A stretch of 46,425 nucleotides of DNA from IMG/VR virus record IMGVR_UViG_2511231131_000010; one strand, written 5' to 3'. The stretch comes from a virus (lineage: Duplodnaviria > Heunggongvirae > Uroviricota > Caudoviricetes). Made by a program: the position numbers. Below, piece after piece: positions 21,001-24,000 of the stretch (its first letter is position 1; every line of letters begins with the position of its first letter).

Positions 21001-24000
21001 ATATTATTCAGTTGTTGCTCTGATATATTCATCGAGTAAATCCGGTAATTTATCCCCTGCCCGCGCACACTGATTTGCCCCCTTAGCAATAAGGGTTTTC
21101 AGATGGTCAAGATGGCGCGGTGTTAAATCAGGAAACTGTCGCTGCATGGATAAAGGGATGGAATCAAGCGTACTGGATAACGCCATTGCCAGCTTACTGA
21201 GGGCAAAAATACAGAACCCGGTGTCAATAAGTTTTCCTTTTGACACCTCATTTTTTAACTGCTGTGTAACAGCCTGTTCTGCTGTCAGTTCCCATCTGGC
21301 AATAAGCAATTTCTCCTCATAGTCGTCTTCGCTATCGCCATCAGGCACATCGTTTTTACTTCTCCTCAGATACGATATGTAAAAATCGCGCCAGGCATCC
21401 AGATCCAGTTGCCCTCGCTTATTCGATATCGGGGCACCCGGCAATTTCTGCAATCTGCGAAGCTGGCGATCGGTCAGACTTAAATGCCTGGCAACTTCAG
21501 TCTGCGTAGCCACTCCTCACCTCGCAAAAACTCTCACCTCACAATCACAACAAAACCGGTCATGTCCGGTTTACATGTCTGTTTTTTGTTCATGTCCGGT
21601 TCACAGAAGACCTGTTTTTATATTTTTCATATAGTTAACTTGCAGAGAAACCGGACATGGATCCCGGAAAATTTTCATAAATAGCGAAAACCCGCGAGGT
21701 CGCCGCCCCGTAACCTGTCGGATCGCCGGAAAGGACCCACGAAAATGATAATAATTATCATCTACATGAGGTTTATCACGACATGTGTGTACGCCATCAA
21801 ACCACGAGAAATAATCAATTATTACGCAGGTATCGTATTAATTGATCTGCATCAAATTAGCGTAAAAGCAACTTCAGATAATACAAATCAGCAACACTGA
21901 ATACGGGGCAACATTATGTCATCAAAGAACAGAACCCGCAGAACAACAACCCGCAACATCCGATTTCCAAACCAGATAATTGAACAAATTAACATCGCTC
22001 TTGACCTGAAAGGTTCAGGTAATTTTTCAGCGTGGGTTATTGAAGCCTGCAGAAGAAGATTAATTAATGAAAAATATTCTCAATTTGTACCCAACAAAGA
22101 CAAACACGACCAGAGCACCTGTTCAGACAGGTTTACTTAAACGACTTATATATGACACAAAAAGCGACCACTAAAGTCGCTTTTTCTTATGGTAACAGGC
22201 AATAACTCTCTCAGATATTTTTTAGCATTTTTTTGACCGCGCGTTTCCGGACGTATTCTGTTCTCCTGTCCCTTTATATCGTCGGAATACCCGCCGCTCT
22301 TCAAATCCCATTCCCAACTCAGAATGTAGTCTGTTGACCGCTTGTTTTATTTCGGTCAGGTTCACCGGTGAAACCGGAGTCCGGCGCGCCTTACGCAAAC
22401 ACTCTGCTCGTTTCTGTGCCGCCACTTTTCTTTTCTGGTCATCACTTAGCTGTACCATCACTTTTGCCCATCGTTCAGCTGCTCTCCGGTACAGTCCTTT
22501 TTTCTCCAGACATTCTGCCACGTGATCATGTAGCATAAGTGACCTCCGATTATCTACAGACTGCCATCCTGAATTTACCTTCCCTTAATGAAATAACAAT
22601 AAAAAACAAGCCACGCAAAAACAATAAAACAACACACAAAAAAAAACTAAATAATAAACAAAAATAATCACCTTATTTTATTATTTTTTGAGGGAGCAAT
22701 TACTGAACAAAAAACGCTGACTATATACTCAAAACCAAACAACTATTCTGCCAATCAGGTATCATGGCAACACACGGAATTACCGTGTTTTTGCCTTCTC
22801 TGCCCATACAATACGGGCATATACTTCATTCTCTATTGTAATATTTCTATCCATGTGCCCCACTCCATTTACCTGTAAATAATATTCAAAATATTTATCA
22901 CAGAAATCGTTTTTGGCCATGAACTGAGCACACTATAAAGTCCGGAACTGACTCTTTGTTAAATTACCTTAACGTTACCAGTAACACCTTCATAACAAAA
23001 CATCACGGTATACACTGGGTACGGATATATTCCTGTGCTCCTTCCAGTTGCTTCTGCATTGCCATCAGCCGTTCTCTGAGGATGAAATAATCCCGTTCAG
23101 CGGTGTCTGCCAGTCGGGGGCCGGTTGCATTATCCACGCCGGAGGTGCCGGTGGCTTCACGCACGGTACCGGAGCAGGTGGCGTTGATCCGCAGGCGCTT
23201 ACGACCAGCGGCAACATCAGCACGCAGAGTTTCATTTTCAGCTCTCGCATCGGCTAATTCCCTCGAGTATCTGGCATCAAGTGCAGCGACATCACGCTGG
23301 CGTATCTGCATATCAGTAATTGTCGCGTTCGCCAGCTCCAGCTCACTGGCTTTTTTATCGCGCTGCTCTTTGTAGATGATGGCGTGATCACGGTAATGAT
23401 TCAGCCCCAGACTAAGCGCACCACAGGCCACCAGCAGGACAATGATAACCACGCACAGAACACGGTTCATATCACCACCAACGGATTGCCCAGACCAGAA
23501 CAGCAATGGCCACAATACGAATGGCAAAAGCTGCCGCTCTTGTTAAATCCAGACTGGCTGGCGTCTCCACTTCAATGCCTTTCATAATGGACAACCTCAG
23601 AAAGAATCTTTTATACTTCCTCACAGGGAAAGTACCTCCCTACCCATAATTTCTCCCTTGCCTTACTCAAGGTCAGAAAACACAAAACCCCGCTTGCTGC
23701 CAACAAACGGGGTTTTTACTTTTATTCACTTAGGTTTTACCAGTTTTCAGGATTTCGTGTTATCCACCCGCGTTGGCCAACGTCATTTTTCAGGAAAATA
23801 TTCTGCTATCTGTCGATGTCCCAGCACGCCAGCGCGCTCTCCTGGTCACGCCGTGAGACCTGACCGTAGCAATTATTTGAACGGATACGGCAGTCTCTGC
23901 CACCGTCCTTAATCCACCAGCGAATCGCCTCACAGGCACCTTTTCGATCGCCTGCATTAATTCGTTTATAAAACGTCGACGGGAAGCACTTACCGGGGCC

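Follow-up and report, generated by a model that had tools for sequence, protein, structure and literature searches.

The virus record IMGVR_UViG_2511231131_000010 (Duplodnaviria; Heunggongvirae; Uroviricota; Caudoviricetes) is a stretch of 46,425 nucleotides, hereafter the window, and represents a lambda-like prophage with its late genes on the minus strand. Between the Rz spanin gene and the cos site lie two small genes: pchA, which encodes a PerC-family transcription regulator and is oriented with the late operon, and, on the plus strand, a member of the ylcI/ynfO family. The original prediction had placed an accessory region with two small regulators and an A-rich tract at 21720-23002, and in this respect it was accurate: the interval is the exact slot from Rz to cos, with Rz/Rz1 on one side and cos (21697-21708) and Nu1 on the other, and the two open reading frames (ORFs) were found where they had been placed, at 21916-22140 (plus strand, 74 aa) and 22222-22536 (minus strand, 104 aa). 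The two genes had been described as divergent; they are in fact convergent and meet at a terminator hairpin (22159-22185).

The minus-strand ORF is pchA. Its product scored 149.3 bits with the Pfam PerC profile (PF06069; cut-off 22.6, E 3.8e-44), covering positions 1-89 of the profile's 90, and all 104 of its 104 residues are identical to PchA (ECs_1091) of Escherichia coli O157:H7 Sakai. An "ANR/PerC-like motif" had been noted in this ORF; the PerC part of that description was borne out, and the ANR part was rejected, NF033650 having scored 13.6 bits (E 0.046) where its cut-off is 32. The exact protein sequence is present on at least 1000 contigs in a public protein collection, and the names given to it are "PerC family transcriptional regulator" (PGAP) and "PchABC family transcriptional regulator" (UniRef). 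A word-based homologue search returned only 16 clusters, all near-identical, and the second Pch allele among related loci differs from the window protein solely by V6L. Sequence and profile searches of the PDB gave no match for the Pch or YlcI proteins.

The features of the slot and its surroundings are as follows, in order of coordinate.

19104-21089, among the minus-strand late genes: large terminase
21004-21513, minus strand: Nu1-type small terminase subunit (Pfam Phage_Nu1 PF07471, E 1e-18), the downstream boundary beyond cos
21697-21708: cosN, the lambda cohesive end of 12 nt (reverse complement of lambda GGGCGGCGACCT), read directly
21709-21915: cos-proximal DNA on the cosQ side, with homology to the right end of lambda (BLAST)
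21916-22140, plus strand: ylcI/ynfO-family gene (DUF3950), 74 aa (PF13132, NF041551)
22159-22185, both strands: predicted bidirectional intrinsic-terminator hairpin (folding against shuffles)
22222-22536, minus strand: pchA (group 1 PerC homologue), 104 aa, co-oriented with the late operon (PF06069, identity to Sakai)
22547-22543, minus strand: Shine-Dalgarno sequence of pchA, GGAGG
22587-22672, minus strand: A-rich tract, T/G-rich on the pchA sense strand (composition)
22705-22779, minus strand: conserved block upstream of pchA (promoter scan, column identity)
22766-22795: stable hairpin overlapping the stop codon of orf46, with a T-run on the plus strand only
22780-22920, minus strand: 46-aa ORF (orf46; phrog_2157) between Rz and pchA, probably non-coding
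23003-23527, minus strand: Rz spanin, the upstream boundary of the module (Pfam Phage_lysis PF03245, E 1.2e-48)
23065-23250, minus strand: Rz1, embedded within Rz
23806-24339, among the minus-strand late genes: lysozyme

Identity to Sakai extends well beyond the coding sequence. Across 870 bp, from the terminator up to where Rz ends, three substitutions and one homopolymer length (A9 in the window, A8 in Sakai) separate the window from Sakai. The whole 0.86-kb unit of upstream block, T-rich tract, Shine-Dalgarno sequence, coding sequence and terminator agrees with the Sakai pchA locus at about 99.5% identity, which makes the A-rich tract a piece of the already known upstream region of pchA. 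Sakai PchA, encoded on prophage Sp4, belongs with its paralogues PchB and PchC to the group 1 PerC homologues, and pchA follows directly on Rz/Rz1, sharing their strand, in Sp4 as in the window; carriage on a lambdoid prophage, a trait of group 1 PchABC, is thus common to both. The two loci differ further out. In Sp4 (17131-24827) the block of holin, lysozyme, Rz and pchA has been inverted with respect to the terminase genes, is severed from them and is flanked by IS629 and ISEc8, and the end of IS629 lies 163 bp from the pchA stop codon, at the place expected for ylcI; the window keeps an uninterrupted order of Rz, pchA, ylcI, cos and Nu1.

The module is common in E. coli genomes. Of 5426 complete E. 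coli genomes, 672 carry the 862-bp segment 22141-23002, with a median of 3 copies and a maximum of 5 per genome; O157:H7, O111, O103 and O55:H7 strains are among them, and the copies were always at least 80% complete. The sole annotation beneath this segment was "PerC family transcriptional regulator"; a wider 1.6-kb query was annotated as PerC family, YlcI/YnfO family, lysis protein and terminase small subunit. Most of the 80 Pch-encoding loci in IMG/VR run from Rz through the 46-aa ORF, the tract, pch and the terminator to ylcI, and what the others lack is confined to elements at either end of this series. Pch is encoded by a single one of 50,697 deposited phage genomes, an unannotated 1.6-kb fragment. 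When the 672 bacterial genomes are set against this one phage record, pch prophages appear to be almost absent from isolated phage genomes.

Much is already published on these proteins. The group 1 genes pchA, pchB and pchC are carried on lambdoid prophages and are required for full expression of ler and the LEE (locus of enterocyte effacement) and for adherence (PMC6265319, PMC4456613). Pch binds DNA of low GC content, chiefly within H-NS-bound regions, and activates LEE1 by relief of silencing by H-NS, StpA and Hha, an effect that is lost in an hns stpA background (PMC4764244). At the LEE1 promoter, PchA, PchB and PchC displace or remodel the silencing complex and so turn on ler (PMC4764244, PMC4456613); via Ler, Pch switches on the type III secretion island as well as non-LEE effectors. 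Inputs to pch expression include LrhA, butyrate through Lrp and LeuO, and NtrC/sigma-S (PMC10714755, PMC4456613, PMC13012123), and SOS induction raises the group 1 pch genes (PMC6265319). An anti-Shine-Dalgarno sequence in the pchA mRNA blocks its own translation and is released by DicF at low oxygen (PMC7769764, PMC7873438). In the window, the Shine-Dalgarno region is calculated to pair with the coding sequence near position +140 at -20 kcal/mol (simple duplex calculation), a prediction compatible with the published mechanism, of which it is not an independent confirmation. Folding of the pchA leader was no better than that of shuffled sequences (z -0.35).

The plus-strand ORF belongs to the ylcI/ynfO family. 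It matched DUF3950 (PF13132) at 63.8 bits (cut-off 25, E 1.3e-17), NF041551 (YlcI_YnfO_N) at 34.5 bits (cut-off 30) and phrog_949 with an E-value of 6.4e-31. The E. coli K-12 gene ylcI, on prophage DLP12, has the same place and orientation relative to nohD. On the minus strand of lambda (NC_001416), complement(48109..48303) encodes an intact YlcI/YnfO (DUF3950) homologue of 64 aa that is missing from the feature table. Lambda right-end sequence resumes in the window at 21709, and BLAST pairs window 22063-21709 with lambda 48156-48502; DNA homology to lambda and K-12 spans from cos to 22050-22063, ending within ylcI near codon 50. Alignment of 27 YlcI/YnfO members revealed that the first 50 or so residues are nearly invariant while the C-terminal tails are unrelated, which places a mosaic (recombination) junction inside ylcI. 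Over the first 50 codons, comparison of the window with lambda counts 12 synonymous codon changes against 5 non-synonymous ones, and the differences fall 4/2/16 on the three codon positions, a pattern indicating that ylcI is a real coding gene under purifying selection at the protein level.

The region had been proposed to lie where lambda has bor. This is correct for the pch segment only, since lambda, too, has a conserved copy of the plus-strand ORF. YlcI of DLP12, YnfO of Qin and the lambda homologue all share with the window protein the DUF3950 domain, the invariant N-terminal 50 residues and a position by cos divergent from Nu1 or nohD; they differ from it in the C-terminal tail and in the convergent neighbour, which is ybcW or lambda p79 in place of pchA. 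Given its presence in lambda and in K-12 DLP12, ylcI is, as judged by sequence comparison, a ubiquitous cos-adjacent gene of lambda-type phages and no special accessory of the window phage.

The same ORF had also been called ribbon-helix-helix (RHH)-like, which after profile searches is plausible yet unproven. The N-terminus of YlcI is basic, an N-I-R-F-P segment is similar to the N-L-R-W-P strand of Arc, and two helices are predicted, features that recall the Arc/Mnt/CopG repressors. A weak HicB-like match was obtained (phrog_497, E 0.0099), and hhalign against Arc, its sequence checked against the PDB, gave a probability of 1.7%. The AlphaFold2 monomer model was of low confidence (pLDDT 60.4), with helices at 19-32 and 34-55 and no strand, and the top Foldseek matches to it, Arc (1par_C) and YiiF (2k5j), were non-significant (E 5-6). 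YlcI thus differs from Arc, Mnt and CopG in that no sequence, profile or structure match to them was significant and the strand is unformed in the monomer model.

Between the two genes, the hairpin at 22159-22185 (A5-GCGAC...GTCGC-T5) folded far better than shuffled sequences on both strands (z -3.8 on plus, -3.9 on minus; 0 of 200 shuffles equal) and is kept in 78 of 80 related loci. It is, by these folding calculations, a bidirectional terminator common to ylcI and pchA; a pattern scan missed it because the A and T runs lengthen the stem.

Convergent genes with one common terminator might be taken for a dedicated regulatory pair, with YlcI acting, for example, as an RHH repressor of pchA or of late and packaging transcription across cos. 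The C-terminal tail of the window's YlcI allele does accompany pch in 77 of the 80 loci, and in K-12 ybcW-ylcI is listed as a convergent pair with overlapping transcription (PMC12288877). The same N-terminus, however, is present in lambda and K-12 DLP12, both without pch, and across a family of 638 protein clusters; a gene that occurs without pch belongs to the cos region and is not a pch partner. Sakai Sp4, moreover, has IS629 in place of ylcI, yet its pchA is the functional reference gene, and DNA binding by YlcI is itself putative. We therefore regard a dedicated pair as highly improbable.

Upstream of pchA lies the most unusual sequence of the slot. The original prediction described about 80 bp of almost pure A/C at 22600-22680; the tract is real, is no product of chance and is the most skewed 81 bp in the window, and "almost pure" overstates it, its composition being 63% A, 18.5% C, 2.5% G and 16% T. 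The top 81-nt windows are 22587-22667 (70% A) and 22591-22671 (88% A+C). These are the highest A and A+C contents in the 46 kb, about 6.5 standard deviations over the mean A content, and elsewhere no 81-nt window reaches 55% A or 85% A+C. Read on the sense strand of pchA, it is a T/G-rich sequence located 50-135 nt upstream of the start codon (ATG). A 23-bp tandem array in the tract (2.1 copies, score 56) was judged a by-product of low complexity.

Bendability of the tract was checked, and the helical phasing of classic bent DNA was not seen: the centres of the A-runs are spaced 15.5, 8.5, 14.5 and 20 bp apart, and AA periodicity at 10-11.5 bp was matched by 955 of 2000 shuffles. With the A-runs out of helical phase, classic intrinsic bending is unsupported. 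The promoter scan gave one sigma-70-like match on the pchA strand, TTGCCA-17-AATAGT at 22770-22742; a weaker proximal candidate, TTGTTA-16-TAAATT, was identified by eye at about 22599-22572. If the distal site is the promoter, the tract would be part of a U-rich leader of about 200 nt; if the proximal candidate is, the tract would be an upstream AT-rich element.

Conservation was assessed with 51 distinct upstream alleles from 84 loci. Column identity in the tract is 0.82-0.93, the lowest in the Rz-pchA spacer, and the flanks (22705-22960 and the Shine-Dalgarno region 22537-22590) are 97-100% conserved. The T-run at 22638-22646 is T7 in 29 of the 84 loci, T8 in 49 and T9 in the window only, and one allele has a deletion of about 40 bp in the tract. 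The skew is nonetheless retained in every group 1 allele examined (T 0.57-0.72, T+G 0.70-0.89), including a divergent "second type" and that of E. albertii. A PerC-family gene of 78% identity in a non-phage context has upstream DNA that is AT-rich but without strand skew; this gene, outside any phage late region, adjoins an EspG-family effector fragment and IS110-type transposase genes.

Based on these comparisons, we take the tract to be regulatory or leader DNA of pchA, AT-rich and prone to silencing, in which composition and not sequence would be constrained. The principal alternative is that it has no function of its own and is low-complexity filler left by recombination or insertion of the pch moron, now drifting by replication slippage. 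The low conservation, the length variants and the deletion allele are as expected of filler, as are the missing helical phasing and the missing skew at the distant PerC-family locus. Against this stand the strand skew held in every group 1 allele and the location of the tract, which lies where promoter-upstream or leader elements act, in a gene under control of H-NS-family and LysR-type regulators. Filler is possible, though we consider it doubtful.

Further upstream, the hairpin at 22766-22795 is very stable (z about -5 on both strands) and overlaps the end of orf46. The 46-aa ORF itself was rejected as a gene: variable sites fall 5/5/3 by codon position, 11 alleles encode 10 different proteins, and no Shine-Dalgarno sequence is visible. 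It is unannotated by PGAP in RefSeq genomes and is probably better taken as non-coding regulatory DNA upstream of pchA. A 51-aa mechanical ORF at 21745-21900 (plus strand; phrog_9395), which overlaps the cosQ side and has no start codon in lambda, is probably no gene either.

The T-run that follows the upstream hairpin on the plus strand only gives it the look of a terminator for transcription antisense to pchA, and raises the prospect of a plus-strand small RNA (sRNA) divergent from pchA. For such an RNA, the promoter-like match TAAACA-18-TATTAT (22655-22684), which lies inside the tract, would set the start near 22690, and the hairpin with its T-run (22766-22797) would set the end; the promoter-like match and terminator-like hairpin are in the correct order on that strand. 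The predicted RNA of about 110 nt has a strong 3' stem-loop and folds somewhat better than shuffles (z -1.96, 5 of 200), its block is 97-100% conserved, and prophages of enterohaemorrhagic E. coli (EHEC) are rich in sRNA genes (PMC4104026). Promoter-like matches, on the other hand, are no commoner than in shuffles (2 observed, 4.2 expected), and the hairpin stem is broken in the E. albertii allele. An Rfam scan of 20500-24500 placed no family within the region of interest even at E<=1; two chance-level matches outside it, a rimP-leader-like terminator at 23651-23726 and a DicF-like match inside the terminase gene, were discarded. The known sRNAs of EHEC prophages map elsewhere (Esr41 in SpLE1, AgvB and AsxR 3' of pR', and the Pas RNAs flanking esterase, holin and lysozyme genes), and those supplements of the Hfq-CRAC study that were examined (PMC4104026) hold no pchA/ECs1091 entry. 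We rate this sRNA as highly improbable.

Taken as a whole, the locus is very probably the standard pchA moron of lambdoid prophages in EHEC and enteropathogenic E. coli (EPEC). The moron would have been inserted between Rz and the cos-adjacent ylcI, replacing the bor-p78-p79 segment of lambda, and the whole 0.86-kb unit travels as one block in hundreds of E. coli genomes, usually in about three copies. In the lysogen, pchA would be served by its own promoter, with the T-rich tract either as an H-NS-prone, AT-rich element upstream of the proximal promoter or as the U-rich part of a leader of about 200 nt; the composition of the tract would be kept while its sequence and T-run length drift. The position of pchA on the late strand just downstream of Rz means that, on prophage induction, Q-antiterminated late transcription should cross it, and the published rise of group 1 pch genes upon SOS induction fits this geometry. 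The window's PchA would act as an activator of LEE1/ler through counteraction of the H-NS family, as is known for the identical protein (PMC4764244, PMC4456613). YlcI, for its part, is a real, selected small protein, general to lambda-type cos regions and plausibly with an Arc-like RHH DNA-binding N-terminus.

Several points weigh against parts of this account. The window is known from sequence alone, and the LEE target of its PchA is assumed from the identical protein. No part of the spacer is less conserved than the tract, and relaxed constraint fits this as well as a compositional function does. The DicF:pchA duplex only weakly beats its controls (10 of 300 DicF shuffles were equally good), and the published site was not independently confirmed by it. 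The assignment of YlcI to the RHH proteins is based on non-significant scores and is a reasonable guess, not a result.

The pchA moron has clear relatives and equally clear differences from them. PerC itself, encoded in the perABC operon of the EPEC plasmid pEAF, shares PF06069 and the activation of LEE1/ler (PMC4456613, PMC4764244); it is plasmid-borne and in an operon with the AraC-type PerA, whereas pchA stands by itself on a prophage, as a moron with an upstream region of its own. Lambda bor and the stx genes downstream of pR' are likewise late-region morons that confer host phenotypes from their own promoter and terminator, and the slot from Rz to cos is occupied in lambda as in the window. 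Bor, however, is a lipoprotein encoded antisense to late transcription, while pchA is co-oriented with the late genes and encodes a transcription regulator.

It had been suggested that small regulators carried at the late region's end could act on host genes. For the minus-strand ORF this was right; since that ORF is PchA, a published activator of LEE1/ler, the suggestion amounts to a rediscovery. The finding is real but already known: this is a well-characterised virulence-regulator locus that public pipelines (PGAP) annotate, and the value of the analysis is mainly correct identification, with no new biology in the finding as stated. A bacterium whose prophage has pchA is likely to be an attaching-and-effacing E. 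coli (of EHEC, EPEC or E. albertii-like background), and the prophage supplies it with a master activator of type III secretion, one among a redundant set. Smaller points remain, namely the share of the tract in the multi-input control of pchA and the role of YlcI/YnfO, to which no function has been assigned even in K-12 and which the lambda reference annotation omits. Of two modestly bolder readings, one would have the tract tune pch expression, as a U-rich leader or an H-NS/LrhA-sensitive element in which T-run length (T7/T8/T9) and allele type set the level of each copy, and the other would have YlcI serve as an Arc-like RHH repressor by cos, conserved in lambda itself. We think these readings unlikely. 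If they held, the several pch copies of a genome would be expressed differently according to T-run length and allele type, and lambda-type phages would own a still-undescribed regulator transcribed against the late operon.

Elsewhere, the window carries genes for an integrase, a CI-like repressor, a Q-like antiterminator, a DNA methylase, lysis, terminase, head and tail proteins, a SASA esterase, Lom and a tail fibre. Three tRNA genes (28024-28270, minus strand) and a match to the STnc100 family of sRNAs (137.7 bits; 27754-27944, minus strand) lie upstream of the SASA sialate-esterase gene (25681-27531). The site upstream of this esterase is the usual pR'-proximal moron site in EHEC and EPEC prophages. 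The STnc100 family is related to PasD in a 2026 preprint. Finally, the segment 36777-36962 (minus strand), which matched C4 antisense RNA at 75 bits and isrK at 62 bits, adjoins and overlaps the start of an Ash/Rha-domain ORF (36171-37019), an arrangement in the early region that looks like a P1/P7-type antirepressor control module.

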